DNA of 34,897 bases. Source: Patescibacteria group bacterium (GTDB taxonomy: Bacteria > Patescibacteriota > Minisyncoccia > JACROR01). Below the pieces are notes generated by a model. The model worked only from the letters and a program-made list of their open reading frames with translations. It did not search any database and had not been told where the DNA came from. Shown in pieces: positions 461 through 25,512 of the stretch. The stretch's first letter is position 1. Each line of letters starts with the position of its first letter. The stretch spans positions 1 to 34,897 of the forward strand of contig JBBTTT010000059.1 of NCBI GenBank assembly GCA_038064095.1, in the 5' to 3' direction. Both the position numbers and the translations under genes were made by a program.

Positions 461-485
461 TCTTAAAATTTTATATCTTTCACTT

Positions 486-552
486 TGAATTACGAAATTG
501 TCGTTTTGAGACCGCCCGCAGGCGCTTTGCTCGGTGTTTTTTCGGCTAAAAT
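486..552. repeat. Diverged solo half-copy of the foldback element at 13648-13811
   Basis: tgaattacgaaat is identical to the terminus of the 13648-13811 element. GACCG-CCGCAGGCG-TTTGCT-GG-TTTTTT-GG-TAAAAT then follows in the same order, roughly 80 percent identity by eye to one arm. It lies just upstream of the yraN start. Confidence 0.7.
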
Positions 553-2092: not shown

Positions 2093-4201
2093 TTATTCTT
2101 GGAATAACTTGAAAAGTTTTTCCAGTTTTAACCAGTTTTTATCGGTATTTTTCTGAATACTGACAATGTCTTCTTCCTTAAGATGGCTGAATCGGCCTTG
2201 AATTTTCAAATACTGTTCCACAATCCTTTTCTTTGGCATCTCGCTGGCTTTATAATCCTCTCCGTTAAAAATTTCATAAAGCGGCCAAATTCTGGTTTCA
2301 ACGGCTAATCTCGCCACTTCAATAGTTTTTTCGGTAGAAAATTTCCAGCCCGGAGGACAAGAAGAGAAAACAAGAATGAATTTAAAGCCTTTTATTTCCT
2401 TTGCTTTTCTGATTTTTTCGAGCAAATCTTCGGGATAAGCGATTGAAGCGGTGGCCGCGTAAGGAATCTTGTGAGCAGCCATAATAGCCATAATGTCTTT
2501 TTTGGGCTGAGATTTTAAATCCGGCGTAGTGCTGCTCCACGCCCCAAAAGGAGTGGACGACGACCTCTGAACGCCGGTATTCATATAAGCCTCATTGTCA
2601 TAGCAGACAAAAATTATGTCATCGTTTCTTTCAGCGGCGCCGGACAAAGCCTGTAATCCAATGTCGTAAGTTCCGCCGTCGCCGGCAAAAGCCAGAACAT
2701 TCACGTCTTCTATCTCTAAAGCGTCAAAACCGGCCCGAGCGCCGGAAGCTTCAGCCGCGGCTTCCTCAAAACAAACATTCTGCAAAGGATAAAGAGAAGC
2801 ACAATTCGGAAATCTGCCGTTGACGACCGAACCGCAGCAAGCCGGTCTCAACTCAAATGTTCTTTTGCCCAATCCTTTTAAAATAAATCTGCTCGCTATC
2901 ATCATGCCGCATCCCTGGCAAGAAAATTCTCCGGCGGAAATATATTCTTCGCCGGGAATTTCTTTGAGAATGTTTTCTTTAGACGCGGAAATTTGAACAG
3001 CCGGATGTTTCGCGGGGTCAAAATTATTGCCGCCGCCGTTTGTTTCTTTAAGATCAATCCAGATCGGCTCCGGGTCAAACTCCGCCCGGACGGGGTCTTT
3101 TTTTGTCCTTTCAATAATTTCCAGGACCCGGCGCGGGCTAACATCTCTTCCGCCGAGACCGGCCGGAAAACTTAAAAGTTTAGGTTTTTGTTCGGCGTAA
3201 AACGCGCCCCTGATCTCTCGCCAGACAATCTTTTGCATATCCCGATCAATTACTGCGATAGTCTCAACTCCCCGAAGAGATTCCATTAATTCTTCTTTAG
3301 GAAACGGCTTGAACATTCTTATTCTGATCAAGCCCACTCCATCAAGATTTTCTATCGCGCTCTTGATTGTCCCCGCGACTGAACCTAAAGCGATAATAGC
3401 TATTTTGGCTTTTTCCATCTTATAAGTTTCAATCGCTTCATATTTTCTGCCAAAAATTTCCTGAAATTCAAAATGGGCTTTTTTAGCGGCCTCTTTTGCC
3501 TTTTTTTCAAGATTTTCCGTCAAAATATAACGGAATTCGGTCAAATAATCATCGCCAATGGAAGGCTCGTAAACCAATGGTTTTTCAAAATCAACGGGAT
3601 AAAGCGGTTTATAGCCGGGCAAAAAATTATCAACTGAATCCTGGGATGAAATTTCTATCGCTTCCGAAGCGTGGGAAAGGTAAAATCCGTCAAGATTCAC
3701 CATTACCGGCGAATAAATTTGCTCGGCGATTTTATAACCGATAATTATTGAATCAAAAACTTCTTGGGCGTCAGCCGCGTAAAATTGCAGCCAAGGAATG
3801 TCGCGAAGAGCCAAACTGTCTTCGTGAGAAGCTAAAATATTCCAAGAAGGACCCAATGTCCTGTTGACATTAACCAAAACCAGAGGCAGCCGCCTAAGAC
3901 CGGCTGAATATATTTGTTCAGCCATTAGCCAAAGGCCCTGCGAAGAGGTCGCGGTAAAAGCCCGGGCGCCGACTCTGGAAGCCGCCATTATTAAGGCCGC
4001 GGCCGAGGCTTCAGATTCAGTATGCTTATACACGGCTTTTAAATATCCTTTAGCGACAAAATCAGCTAATTTTTCCGCAACGGTAGTTTGGGGAGTAATG
4101 GGATAAGCCGAAATAACTTGAACTTTTGAACGAACCGCCCCCCAAGCCGCCGCCTCATTGGCATGCATTACTTTTCGGAATTTTTCCAAAATCTTTTCCA
4201 T
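2093..4201 (-). CDS. porA: 2-oxoacid (pyruvate):ferredoxin oxidoreductase, fused alpha (PorA) and beta (PorB, TPP-binding) subunits
   Basis: The N-terminal half MHANEAAAWGAVRSKVQVISAYPITPQT... is PorA-like. The C-terminal half has CQGCG...GDGGTYDIGLQALSGAAERNDDIIFVCYDNEAYMNTGVQRS (TPP-binding GDGG...N motif, PorB-like). The start is the ATG at 4199-4201 with a GGAGG 6 nt upstream, 1 nt after the upstream gene's stop. Confidence 0.9.
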   Translation of the reverse strand: MEKILEKFRKVMHANEAAAWGAVRSKVQVISAYPITPQTTVAEKLADFVAKGYLKAVYKHTESEASAAALIMAASRVGARAFTATSSQGLWLMAEQIYSAGLRRLPLVLVNVNRTLGPSWNILASHEDSLALRDIPWLQFYAADAQEVFDSIIIGYKIAEQIYSPVMVNLDGFYLSHASEAIEISSQDSVDNFLPGYKPLYPVDFEKPLVYEPSIGDDYLTEFRYILTENLEKKAKEAAKKAHFEFQEIFGRKYEAIETYKMEKAKIAIIALGSVAGTIKSAIENLDGVGLIRIRMFKPFPKEELMESLRGVETIAVIDRDMQKIVWREIRGAFYAEQKPKLLSFPAGLGGRDVSPRRVLEIIERTKKDPVRAEFDPEPIWIDLKETNGGGNNFDPAKHPAVQISASKENILKEIPGEEYISAGEFSCQGCGMMIASRFILKGLGKRTFELRPACCGSVVNGRFPNCASLYPLQNVCFEEAAAEASGARAGFDALEIEDVNVLAFAGDGGTYDIGLQALSGAAERNDDIIFVCYDNEAYMNTGVQRSSSTPFGAWSSTTPDLKSQPKKDIMAIMAAHKIPYAATASIAYPEDLLEKIRKAKEIKGFKFILVFSSCPPGWKFSTEKTIEVARLAVETRIWPLYEIFNGEDYKASEMPKKRIVEQYLKIQGRFSHLKEEDIVSIQKNTDKNWLKLEKLFKLFQE

Positions 4202-12888: not shown

Positions 12889-13641
12889 ATGCGAAACAAC
12901 GACTCAAGATTAAAAAATATTTTTATCGTTATTTTTCTCGGCTTTCTGATGTTAATTATTATTTATTCGCTTTTCTGGGGGCCGGCCGGAAAACTAACCG
13001 ATTCTTTGATGCCGATAAGAACAATTTTGGTTTCCGGCGAAGGCAAAGCAATCATTGAACCGAATACCGCCAGAATTTCATTTTCGGTTTTCTCCGAAGG
13101 GGCTAATCCGGAAATTTTAATCAAAGACAACATCAAAAAAATGAACGCTGCCGTTGATTTCATAAAATCAAAAGACATTGACGTTAAAGACATTAAAACA
13201 ACCCAATATGATTTGCGGCCGGTTTCCGAATACAATGAAGAAAAAAAGCGTTCTTTCATCAGCGGTTATCAAATGACTCAAACGGTTTCGGTAAAAATAC
13301 GCGATTTAACAAAACTGGCGGAAATCCTCGGCGGCTTGCCCGAACTGGGCATTAATCAGATTGATTCCGTCGCGTTTGAAATAGACGATCCGGAAAAATA
13401 TTTAACCGAAGCCAGAAATCAAGCCTTTGCCAAAGCCAGACAAAAAGCCGAAGAAATGGCGAAGGCGAATAACGTAAAACTTGATAAAATAATAAATTTC
13501 TCGGAATACCAAAACGGGGGACCGGCGCCTTATTATTACGGCGGTTTGGAAAGAACCGAATCTTTTAAAATAACCCCCTCTCTCCAGCCCGGAACTCAAG
13601 AAATAACGGTTTCGGCGAACATCACTTATCAGATAAAATAA
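12889..13641 (+). CDS. SIMPL/DUF541 (YggE-like) periplasmic or membrane-anchored protein
   Basis: An N-terminal TM anchor, then the typical SIMPL pattern: ...ISFSV...A...NA..M..V...IK...I...DIKT..Y.L.P.Y....GYQ..Q.V.V.IRD... and a C-terminal GTQEITVSANITYQI. Confidence 0.8.
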   Translation: MRNNDSRLKNIFIVIFLGFLMLIIIYSLFWGPAGKLTDSLMPIRTILVSGEGKAIIEPNTARISFSVFSEGANPEILIKDNIKKMNAAVDFIKSKDIDVKDIKTTQYDLRPVSEYNEEKKRSFISGYQMTQTVSVKIRDLTKLAEILGGLPELGINQIDSVAFEIDDPEKYLTEARNQAFAKARQKAEEMAKANNVKLDKIINFSEYQNGGPAPYYYGGLERTESFKITPSLQPGTQEITVSANITYQIK

Positions 13642-13647
13642 TCTTTT

Positions 13648-13811
13648 TGAATTACGAAATGACCATTTTCGCGACCCGCAAGCCGCTCCCGCGACGGCTT
13701 GCTCTATCCTCGGCGATTTGCTTTTTTGGTTCGCTTCGCGGACATTTTAACCAAAAAAGCGCCAAGCAAATCGCCTGCGGACGGTCGCGAAAATGGTCAT
13801 TTCGTAATTCA
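13648..13811. repeat. 164-bp foldback element with 29-bp perfect terminal inverted repeats and internal sub-hairpins (MITE-like element or structured RNA)
   Basis: TGAATTACGAAATGACCATTTTCGCGACC (13648-13676) is the exact reverse complement of 13783-13811. Inner pairings are GGCGATTTGCTT (13712-23) with AAGCAAATCGCC (13764-75), TTTTTTGGTT with AACCAAAAAA, and a side hairpin AAGCCG/CGGCTT (13680-13700). It fills the spacer between two + strand genes. Confidence 0.85.
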
Positions 13812-13818
13812 TATTCTT

Positions 13819-14508
13819 ATGAAAATTTCTCTCTTTGCTAAAGACGGCGTAAAAATCAGCGCCAATCTTTATCCCGCAGCAAAGCAAGCACGCTACGGGG
13901 CAAGTTCCGTTGAAAAACCGATCGGCTGGCTGGTTTTAATCCATATGATGCCCGCGACAAAAGAATCATGGCAGAATTTCGCGGAAAAAGCGCAAAATGA
14001 AAAATATGAAAGCATCGCCGTTGATTTGCGGGGACATGGCGAATCCAAAGGCGGGCCTGACGGATTTATTCATTTTACCGACGAAGAACATCAAAAAAGC
14101 ATTTTTGACGTCCAAGCCACGGTTGATTATTTGATAAATTCGCGCGGGGCGGCTCCCGCTAAAATTTTTCTGATCGGCGCGTCCATTGGGGCGAACCTCT
14201 CATTGGAATATCTGGCAGAAAATCCAAAATTTCCAGCCGCGGTTTCGCTTTCCGCGGGCTTAAATTATCGGGGAATTAAAACAGAACCATTGATTAAAAA
14301 TTTTCAAGCCGGCCAAAAAATCTTTTTTGTCAGTGCGAAAGACAACGGCGATAATGCCAAAGAAAACCAAAAACTTTATGAATTAACGCCGAATTATGTG
14401 AATAAAAAAATCAAAATTTTTAACACCGGAGGCCACGGCACCGATCTTTTAAAAAATAATCCAAATCTGGAAAATTTAATTTTTGAATTTTTGAAATCCT
14501 CCGCGTGA
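13819..14508 (+). CDS. Alpha/beta-fold hydrolase
   Basis: It has the HG oxyanion region (LVLIHMMP), the nucleophile elbow GASIGAN (GxSxG) and a C-terminal GGHGTDLL (His). The start is the ATG at 13819. The tracked ORF's upstream 40 codons lie in the foldback element. Confidence 0.75.
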   Translation: MKISLFAKDGVKISANLYPAAKQARYGASSVEKPIGWLVLIHMMPATKESWQNFAEKAQNEKYESIAVDLRGHGESKGGPDGFIHFTDEEHQKSIFDVQATVDYLINSRGAAPAKIFLIGASIGANLSLEYLAENPKFPAAVSLSAGLNYRGIKTEPLIKNFQAGQKIFFVSAKDNGDNAKENQKLYELTPNYVNKKIKIFNTGGHGTDLLKNNPNLENLIFEFLKSSA

Positions 14509-14519
14509 TTCTTAAACTC

Positions 14520-15503
14520 TTATTTCTTTCTCCTTTTTCCGTGAAAAGCGGAATGGATTTCGCGAAGTTGTTTATCGGTGACATGAGTGTAAACTTGAGT
14601 CGTGGCGATATTGGCGTGGCCCAAAAGAGCCTGCACCGAACGCAAATCCGCGCCGTTGGACAACAAATCAGTGGCAAAAACATGCCGCAAAATATGGGGA
14701 GTGACTTTTCGGGAAATCCCGGCAGCAATGGCGCAATGCCGGACTAAACGCTCCACCGAGCGCGGAGTAAGGCGGGCCTCCGCCTCGCCGAAGTGGCTAC
14801 GGCCACGCAGGCGGGATTTCTCGGAAAGAGCGTCTTTTTTTTTGCCGCCCTCAACGCTCGCTCGCCGAAAATTTATGAAAAGAGCTTCTTCCAAATCGCC
14901 GCGCTTTTCCAAATAATTTTTAAGCGCCTGCCGCGCCCGGTCGGATAAAAACACCACCCGCACTTTTTCGCCCTTGCCGCGCACGGAAAATTCGCCTTTC
15001 GCCAAATTGATGGAATCTTTATTTAATCCGCAAAGCTCGGAAACCCGCAAGCCCGTGGAAAACAAAAGCTCTAAAATCGCTTTGTCGCGCAATCCTTTAA
15101 GCGAATCAACGACCGGCGATTCCAAAAGTCGCTCCAGTTCATTTTCATCAATTAAGTCCAGCTCCCGGCTGCCGGTTTTTGCCAATTCAATCCGTTCGGC
15201 CGGCAACGTCTCAATTCCGCGTTTAACCAGATATTTCAAAAAAACGCGCAAGCCGATCAAATAATAATTTTGAGTCTTCTTTTTTATCTCGCCCTCCGCG
15301 ACTTTTTGTCTGTTAAGCCAAAGACGATAACGGCGCACTAAATCATCGCTGATTTCCCGCGGCTCGTTGATTTTAGAAAAATTCAGAAAGCGCTTGAGAT
15401 AACGATCGTAATTTTCCACGGTCTTTAAACTCCGGCCTTTTTCAATTTCCAGATATTCCAAAAATTCTTTACGCAGAGATTGAATCCCGTCAAAAGTTTT
15501 CAT
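14520..15503 (-). CDS. xerC: Tyrosine recombinase XerC/XerD family, with a roughly 28-aa internal insert
   Basis: The N-terminal SAM-like domain has YLEIEKGRSLKTVENYDRYLKRF. The catalytic domain has GLRVSEL (Arg I), TPHILRHVFATDLLSNGADLRSVQALLGHANIATTQVYTHV (HxxR, His, Tyr). Confidence 0.9.
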   Translation of the reverse strand: MKTFDGIQSLRKEFLEYLEIEKGRSLKTVENYDRYLKRFLNFSKINEPREISDDLVRRYRLWLNRQKVAEGEIKKKTQNYYLIGLRVFLKYLVKRGIETLPAERIELAKTGSRELDLIDENELERLLESPVVDSLKGLRDKAILELLFSTGLRVSELCGLNKDSINLAKGEFSVRGKGEKVRVVFLSDRARQALKNYLEKRGDLEEALFINFRRASVEGGKKKDALSEKSRLRGRSHFGEAEARLTPRSVERLVRHCAIAAGISRKVTPHILRHVFATDLLSNGADLRSVQALLGHANIATTQVYTHVTDKQLREIHSAFHGKRRKK

Positions 15504-19364: not shown

Positions 19365-19401
19365 TCAACGATAATTTCGTAATTTAAGACAAAATAATCT
19401 T

Positions 19402-24675: not shown

Positions 24676-25512
24676 ATGACAAAATTAGGCCAGCATTTCT
24701 TAAAATCCGAATCCATTGCCCGAAAAATCGTTGAAACCGCCGGTCTCGCGCCGGACGATCTTGTTTTGGAAATCGGCCCGGGCAAGGGCATCCTGACCGT
24801 TGAACTTCTCAAACGCGCCAAAAAAGTAGTGGCCGTAGAAAAAGACGGTTATTTGGTTGAATTTCTGAAGAAAAAATTTTCCTCCGAGCGCCGCGCCTCT
24901 AAATTGAAAATTATTCACGGGGATGCCTTAAAACTTAATCCTGAAAAACTAATGGAACCAAAAACCAATAAAGCTGATTACAAAATCGTTGCCAATCTTC
25001 CTTATTACATCACTTCGCGTTTTCTGCGCTTATTTTTAACTTCAAAATATCCGCCCAAAGAAATGACTTTAATGGTCCAAAAAGAAGTTGCCCAAAGAAT
25101 CGTCAGCCGACCGCCGAAAACAAACCTGCTGGCTCTTTCCGTCCAAATTTTCGGCCGGCCGAAAATCGCTTTTAAAGTTTCAAAGCAATATTTTTCTCCG
25201 GCGCCGAAAGTGGATTCCGCGGTTATTGCCATTACCGATATCTCCCGCGATTTTTTCATCAAAAACAACATTGAAGAAAAAGAATTTTTTACGCTCGTTA
25301 AAGCCGGTTTTTCTCAAAAACGCAAATTTTTAATCAATAATCTCGCTAATCCCATAAGTGAGACCTATGTAAAATACATAGGTCTCACTTATGGGAAAAA
25401 AGAATGGCGGGAAACTTTTAAAAAATGCGGGATTCCGGAAAAATCCCGGCCGGAAAATCTTTCACTGGAAAACTGGGTTTGTCTTTATAAAAAAAACGGG
25501 GAATGTAAATAA
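24676..25512 (+). CDS. rsmA: 16S rRNA (adenine1518/1519-N6)-dimethyltransferase RsmA/KsgA
   Basis: The motifs are LGQHFL, VLEIGPGKGILT (SAM-binding), IVANLPYYITS and FSQKRKFLINNL. The start is taken at the ATG at 24676 (MTKLGQHFL). Confidence 0.9.
   Translation: MTKLGQHFLKSESIARKIVETAGLAPDDLVLEIGPGKGILTVELLKRAKKVVAVEKDGYLVEFLKKKFSSERRASKLKIIHGDALKLNPEKLMEPKTNKADYKIVANLPYYITSRFLRLFLTSKYPPKEMTLMVQKEVAQRIVSRPPKTNLLALSVQIFGRPKIAFKVSKQYFSPAPKVDSAVIAITDISRDFFIKNNIEEKEFFTLVKAGFSQKRKFLINNLANPISETYVKYIGLTYGKKEWRETFKKCGIPEKSRPENLSLENWVCLYKKNGECK
25351..25395. repeat. Perfect 45-bp palindrome (21-bp stem, 3-nt loop) embedded in frame in rsmA
   Basis: CCCATAAGTGAGACCTATGTA-aaa-TACATAGGTCTCACTTATGGG was read directly. 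It is 15 codons long and encodes PISETYVKYIGLTYG in the variable linker of the RsmA C-terminal domain. Confidence 0.9.

Follow-up and report, generated by a model that had tools for sequence, protein, structure and literature searches.

An intergenic foldback in a Patescibacteria genome is very probably a decayed MITE with IS982-family ends

A 164-bp hairpin that separates two genes of a Patescibacteria group bacterium is, judging from sequence comparisons, very probably an IS982-derived MITE, that is, a decayed copy of a non-autonomous DNA transposon with the ends of IS982-family insertion sequences. This identification follows from target-site duplications found in the family, from termini identical to those of an IS982-family insertion sequence (IS), and from the co-occurrence of transposase and terminus among genomes. 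A preliminary description of this DNA had listed a MITE-like mobile foldback first among its candidates, and the same three observations bear out that choice. The hairpin lies at 13648-13811 of the window, by which we mean the whole stretch analysed (34,897 nucleotides, contig JBBTTT010000059.1). While the type of element is ordinary, the family is previously unnoted in this host group, and no papers on MITEs in Patescibacteria or Saccharibacteria were found in the literature searched.

The element is a strongly folded, branched hairpin. Its inverted arms (13648-13676 and 13783-13811) are 29 nt long and 100% complementary, with 106 nt between them, and the interior holds two more perfect 12-nt inverted pairs (13712-13723/13764-13775 and 13720-13731/13749-13760). 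The two strands have predicted MFEs of -91.3 kcal/mol (+ strand) and -98.2 kcal/mol (- strand), compared with averages of -44 and -50 for dinucleotide shuffles (z = -11.8 and -11.7, respectively); none of 200 shuffles folds as well. In the predicted fold, the branched hairpin carries a side hairpin at 13678-13702 and a CGC-UUC-GCG tip. The foldback with perfect 29-bp termini, its two further paired segments, its side hairpin and its tip are thus all as first described. The parts of the element are as follows.

13645-13814, unstranded: full-length MITE copy between the SIMPL and alpha/beta-hydrolase genes, comprising the 164-bp core (13648-13811) and degenerate outer triplets TTT/TAT.
13648-13676, + strand: left terminal inverted repeat (TIR) TGAATTACGAAATGACCATTTTCGCGACC, whose first 13 nt are the family terminus, common to the IS982-type TIR.
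13678-13702, unstranded: short G+C-rich internal side hairpin (GCAAGCCG...CGGCTTGC), present in the MFE structures, with the same layout in the elements of genome G012.
13712-13775, unstranded: long internal hairpin (GGCGATTTGCTTTTTTGGTT ... AACCAAAAAAGC..AAGCAAATCGCC), which carries the CGC-TTC-GCG tip.
13783-13811, - strand: right TIR, the perfect complement of the left, ending 7 nt before the hydrolase ATG (13819).

The same architecture recurs in another genome. Over its full length, the element can be aligned with elements of 161-162 bp in G012 (~70% identity), and both share a three-way layout of a long terminal stem, one long hairpin and one short G+C-rich hairpin. The outer triplets read TTT on the left and TAT on the right (ATA on the - strand), compared with CTT...AAG in the family consensus. 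There is no clean target-site repeat at the element, the best being the degenerate pair TAATCTT/TATTCTT.

The preliminary description had the element filling the spacer between its neighbours, and it does take up 164 of the 177 nt from the stop codon of the SIMPL-family gene (12889-13641) to the ATG of the alpha/beta-hydrolase gene (13819-14508). The two genes are co-directional, and the element contains no promoter-like site. It falls under ~300 bp and has no transposase gene; apart from a spurious 64-aa frame and a TTG extension of the adjoining gene, it contains no ORF. An exact copy of the hydrolase was found in seven assemblies of the same population, all seven with an identical element at the locus. 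No empty site was found, as these seven assemblies are all filled and same-family relatives are not syntenic at the SIMPL-hydrolase junction. One gene away, convergent with the hydrolase gene, the window encodes a tyrosine recombinase of 327 aa (14520-15503, - strand), which looks like an ordinary Xer-type enzyme by its domains and for which we found no link to the repeats.

The reading frames had been described as spurious in-frame extensions, yielding ACGRS peptides, at both the element and a half copy of it upstream of yraN. Both peptides exist, and the one at yraN does belong to a spurious N-terminal extension of that gene. The other lies in the free-standing 64-aa ORF that runs across the element (13647-13841); the in-frame TTG extension of the hydrolase (13699) encodes a different peptide. 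For annotation, this means that these repeats yield spurious ORFs and false N-terminal extensions, here of yraN and the hydrolase.

The element belongs to a dispersed family within its own genome. The genome that holds the window (G000; 525 kb, 77 contigs, 43% G+C) contains 12 exact occurrences of the 13-mer terminus TTGAATTACGAAA, whereas 0.04 are expected from base composition, an excess of ~300-fold. Further genomic copies, which the preliminary description had proposed to look for, are therefore present. They make up about 10 family loci: the 164-mer and nine more, namely the half copy, three mini-palindromes, one tiny palindrome (contig C18) and four solo termini (contigs C10, C19 and C66, and window 19374-19389, the latter with mismatches). 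Every locus is intergenic, in gaps of 10-180 nt, and the flanking genes are unrelated to one another. The mini-palindromes (contigs C31, C49 and C77) are 31-33 bp long and consist of two termini, as 13-bp arms, around a loop of 5-7 nt; the one on C77 is flanked on both sides by the 7-bp duplication TTTTACA. Two of the further loci lie within the window.

483-553, + strand: truncated half copy, with a perfect 16-nt consensus terminus CTTTGAATTACGAAAT (483-498) and ~55 nt of subterminal sequence; its outer end faces the UPF0102/YraN start codon (minus strand).
19374-19389, - strand: probable solo terminus remnant TCTTAAATTACGAAAT, of lower confidence, differing from the 16-mer at 3 positions; similarity to the copy at 483 extends through the following 8 nt, TATCGTTG.

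The half copy had been placed at 486-552, just upstream of yraN, and this is upheld by its alignment with the arm ending at 13811 (81% identity over 68 nt, E = 2.3e-11 within the genome; the gapped alignment stops at ~553). It lies 26 nt upstream of the UPF0102/YraN start, and its subterminal part is a near-identical match to “end A” of the G012 elements. The remnant at 19374-19389 lies in a 37-nt gap, 12 nt upstream of the following gene's start; as 3-mismatch matches to the 16-mer occur ~1.6 times per window by chance, it is supported solely by its extended similarity.

At five solo termini (C10:1931, C19:8756, C66:2457, and window 483-498 and 19374-19389), the retained end faces the start codon of the adjacent gene at a distance of 8-27 nt, and the inner side has given way to unrelated sequence or to the end of the upstream gene. 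With regard to the assembly itself, most contig ends of this genome overlap another contig end by exactly 55 nt, the assembly k-mer. Much of its fragmentation into 77 contigs is graph branching and not missing sequence.

An ordinary intrinsic terminator of the SIMPL gene, or a chance palindrome with an accidental similarity at 486-552, has almost no probability as an explanation of the element. A strong hairpin directly after a stop codon is what a terminator would look like; however, the base of the stem is A+T-rich and is followed by no proper T-run, and a terminator scan makes no call at the element. The real bidirectional terminators of this genome also differ (AAAAATCCCGCC...GGCGGGATTTTT). 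Neither a terminator nor chance fits a terminus that is over-represented ~300-fold and common to other genomes. The original view of a dispersed repeat family, and not a simple terminator, is thus borne out by the count in this genome and by the presence of the terminus in 68 of 401 genomes of the class.

The same genome has many other perfect palindromes, 34-55 bp long, among them those at window 25350-25396 and at C19:9967-10004, C74:8827-8860, C6:6326-6380, C4:2844-2877 and C76:397-432. Several of these are classic bidirectional terminators (A-run, CCCGCC stem, T-run). The one at 25350-25396, a 47-bp palindrome in rsmA, is unrelated in sequence to the MITE family.

Family members carry the signature of transposition. 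Genome G041, a Patescibacteria MAG (isolate H52-bin123_1) of 500 kb, has 88 termini and ~45 elements of ~146 bp, which start with CTTTGAATTACGAAA and end with TTTCGTAATTCAAAG; many of its contigs end inside an element copy. Exact flanking direct repeats of 6-8 bp were found in 15 of 25 elements examined (e.g., AAAATTTA, TATATTTA, TATATCAA and TAAATATA). As a control, left and right flanks of different elements were paired, and such a repeat appeared in 11 of 600 pairs, which argues against sequence composition as the source of the repeats. These repeats, together with TTTTACA on C77, are target-site duplications, as left by a cut-and-insert reaction of the DDE type.

The target-site duplications also bear on the REP-type element that the preliminary description had listed as a candidate. 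Under this explanation, the family would be an extragenic palindrome (REP/REPIN) mobilised as a single-stranded hairpin by a domesticated Y1 (RAYT) transposase. The family is indeed palindromic, intergenic and multi-copy, it includes short palindromes of 31-33 bp, and Y1 transposase genes do occur in several related genomes. However, the Y1 domain (PF01797) has no matches in either G000 or G041, the latter with ~45 copies, and is present in the non-carriers G002 and G003. Furthermore, the family has 6-8-bp target duplications, while REP/RAYT and IS200/IS605 elements are not known to make any, and its termini equal those of a DDE-type IS982 element. We thus regard a REP/REPIN origin as highly improbable. 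The IS200/IS605-type transposase suggested at the outset as a possible source is likewise of the wrong family, since the transposase that matches is of the IS982 type.

Proteins of ~190-270 aa with a Y1 domain (PF01797) are encoded by three to six genes per genome in G002, G003, G012, G028 and G042 (e.g., loci L187-L194). Separately, tyrosine-recombinase core sites or integron attC sites were considered for the mini-palindromes, and were dropped because the spacer is variable, duplications are present and the family is linked to IS982.

The termini of the family are those of an IS982-family insertion sequence. By tracing a pair of termini 1 kb apart, we identified a 1005-bp element on contig C71 of genome G333, with a perfect 22-bp TIR (CTTTGAATTACGAAATTATTCA) and a single ORF of 286 aa. 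The encoded protein matches the “IS982 family transposase” profile NF033520 with 139.2 bits (cut-off 130) and PF13612 (DDE_Tnp_1_3) with 101.7 bits (cut-off 27; 5e-29). The 16-nt family consensus CTTTGAATTACGAAAT is the start of this 22-bp TIR. Homologues of the transposase are numerous, mostly on contigs of ~1.0-1.4 kb, and the same inverted termini stand ~1.0 kb apart at thirteen further transposase loci. This holds for 11 of the 11 loci fetched, which represent four distinct homologous transposases (57-74% identical) from independent samples. A 985-bp copy of the IS in G372 has the same termini and a 7-bp duplication, TAGTTTA. The parental elements identified are ~1.0 kb long, with one DDE transposase of 267-286 aa and 22-bp TIRs. 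The similarity of the 164-bp element to the IS is limited to the outer 16 nt, and the interiors are dissimilar. A 537-bp element in G400 (contig C64; L240:71-607) has the family termini and retains a fragment of an IS982-type transposase; it is plausible that this internally deleted copy is an intermediate step from IS to MITE.

Transposase and terminus co-occur among genomes. The transposase was detected in seven of the 401 genomes of the class, and all seven also have the terminus. It was not found in the genome that holds the window, nor in the MAGs with the heaviest load of copies (G041, G330 and G012, as well as G198, which has only a degraded fragment with stop codons), and 61 of the 68 carriers of the terminus are without it. 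Long-range TIR pairs were sought in G000, G012, G028 and G041 and none were found, which indicates that no autonomous copy has been binned there, and a self-BLAST of G000 revealed no multi-copy IS. Contigs of 1 kb that carry a multi-copy IS are commonly lost from MAG bins, and absence of the transposase is thus weak evidence. The elements in carriers in which no transposase was detected look orphaned. As these are most of the carriers, the source of the enzyme is in question: copies may have been lost, they may lie on unbinned contigs, or the elements may be passing through.

An IS256-family “Zn-variant” transposase (NF048019, 3e-81) adjoins family copies on one contig (L170) and was tried as the parent. 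It was rejected, as its homologues have different TIRs (GGTCTAATGG...GAGCAGTCTG) and it is absent from G000, G012 and G028.

The same contig (CAYJQQ010000125.1) was binned as Gammaproteobacteria and looks like a Patescibacteria contig. Its IS256-family “Zn-binding variant” IS (2648-3669) has TIRs of its own (GGGTTAATACCC..GAGCAGTCTG / CAGACTGCTT..CATTAGACC) and sits amid several MITE copies, adjoining a UvrD/PcrA-type helicase that was identified by reading the sequence. The transposase frame needs 8 A's directly after the ATG, where the contig has 7. At 289-328 and 2413-2452, a terminal module of ~28 nt (TGAATTACGA..TTTAGACC) occurs twice in tandem at the same element end; these may be duplicated transposase-binding sites or nested insertions.

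The distribution of the family is patchy and centered on Patescibacteria. Of 40 relatives scanned for the 13-mer, those in the same genus and family lack it, and two genomes of other families hold it in multiple copies. Across the 401-genome sample, it is found in 17% of genomes, spread over many families, and ~40 of the 68 carriers are multi-copy, with highest counts of 61 and 52 termini; a reversed pattern, scanned as a control, gave 0-1 hits per genome. When a longer terminal pattern was scanned against one genome per species, it was recovered in MAGs labelled Saccharibacteria and “Patescibacteria group”, as well as in one 3.7-kb contig binned as Gammaproteobacteria. The same scan gave six single matches in unrelated taxa, about the number expected by chance, and paired or multiple termini occur on Patescibacteria-type contigs only. 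Viral contigs scanned with a 14-mer were uninformative, with only single, chance-type hits among the matches listed. Samples named Hain_H51 and Hain_H32 are the source of the window's population, and the name of the G041 MAG (H52-bin123_1) suggests that both are from the same groundwater site or aquifer.

One occurrence of the 13-mer, at L025:480-560 (contig C5 of G028), makes up the loop in an unrelated hairpin with G+C-rich arms (GGGGTGAGG-TTGAATTACGAAA-CCTCATCCCC); this may be either a remnant or a match by chance.

From these observations, we propose the following history. An IS982-type transposase would bind the ~16-bp termini and move the element, by cut and paste or by copying, to AT-rich sites between genes, where 7-8 bp would be duplicated. 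The copy in the window would be an old insertion that is no longer mobile: no transposase was found in its genome, its outer triplets have drifted from CTT/AAG, and it has no clean duplication. The half copy, the mini-palindromes of 31-33 bp and the solo termini would be deletion derivatives of such insertions. Because it lies between two co-directional genes and has no promoter-like site inside, the 164-bp element is probably co-transcribed, giving a long RNA hairpin whose base would stand 7 nt upstream of the start codon of the hydrolase; an effect on this gene, if any, would be a by-product. None of this changes the mechanism of MITEs as it is known.

A pure “TIRs only” model, however, does not require that the arms co-vary, which they do. 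In an alignment of 18 G041 copies (A1), 16 of 49 predicted pairs have changed on both sides and still pair, and the arms of different subfamilies are distinguished by complementary 5-7-nt blocks (e.g., GTAAAG/CTTTAC versus ACAGGC/GCCTGT). Such block differences indicate that renewal or selection acts on the palindrome deep inside the termini. As other foldback MITEs do, these elements remain palindromic far past the ends to which transposase would bind. The paired changes fall in a few subfamilies and thus represent few events.

This co-variation is also the starting point for a further reading, in which the foldback, as RNA, or a cruciform, as DNA, has been exapted and is now kept for a function on top of its MITE origin. 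It may serve as an intercistronic signal for RNA processing or stability, as a translational brake on the downstream gene, or as a protein-binding site. If true, exaptation would explain the paired arm substitutions, the survival of elements beyond their transposase, and remnants that keep the start-codon end. Elements do survive in very strongly reduced genomes without a detected transposase, all five solo termini in the window's genome keep the end that faces the next start codon (8-27 nt), and the right arm of the 164-bp element stops 7 nt before the hydrolase ATG. Set against this, the orientation of five out of five solo termini gives a p of only ~0.06, and co-variation confined to a few subfamilies amounts to few events. 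The flanked genes are mutually unrelated, and interiors differ wholly between genomes, such that only the transposase-type termini are conserved. The preliminary description had also raised a structured small RNA, and no Rfam family was matched at gathering score, the best hit being leuA-Halobacteria (RF03001; 30.2 bits versus a threshold of 47.9; Rfam 15). On balance, we consider exaptation unlikely.

Patescibacteria are usually regarded as having streamlined genomes, against which a MITE family at ~45 copies in 500 kb is noteworthy. The family is found in 17% of the sampled class genomes, is absent from the genus and family of the window's own genome, and occurs in two MAGs whose names point to the same site. 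Taken together, these features make it a marker that can be used to follow horizontal DNA traffic among these episymbionts.

Comparable known systems include the Correia elements of Neisseria and ERIC/RUP-type MITEs, which are intergenic foldbacks of 100-160 bp whose TIRs are conserved and whose target duplications are short. These are co-transcribed with their neighbours and occur in full-length and internally deleted size classes; Correia elements make a TA duplication and are known to undergo RNase III processing or to have promoter activity. The family described here resembles them in foldback form, TIRs, duplications, intergenic sites and size classes, although the sequences are unrelated and the length of the duplication differs. 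Like REP/REPIN elements, it is a multi-copy set of short palindromes outside genes, some of them in inverted pairs; unlike the REP/REPIN-RAYT system, it lacks a RAYT in the carriers G000 and G041, has target duplications, and shares its termini with a DDE IS. The IS982 family is described as making duplications of 3-9 bp. The parental elements conform to this family (NF033520; PF13612) in their length of ~1.0 kb, DDE transposase, TIRs and 7-bp duplication, the clade with the CTTTGAATTACGAAA terminus being assigned to IS982 by profile scores rather than against named ISfinder entries. Unlike an IS982 IS, the element in the window encodes nothing and shares the outer 16 nt only.

A precedent is provided by MITECca01 and MITECca02 of the Cardinium endosymbiont of Oedothorax gibbosus, which are ~240 bp long and derived from ISCca4, an IS982-family element with intact parental copies in the same genome (PMC9769881). 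Likened by description and not by sequence, both cases involve short non-coding elements whose inverted repeats match an IS982-family IS and which are multi-copy in a reduced genome. Both also include internally deleted intermediates, here represented by G400. Unlike in Cardinium, 61 of 68 carrier genomes here, that of the window among them, show no transposase. The elements also differ in form from the Cardinium MITEs, in that they are 31-167 bp long, are near-complete foldbacks with branched interiors, and are hosted by Patescibacteria.
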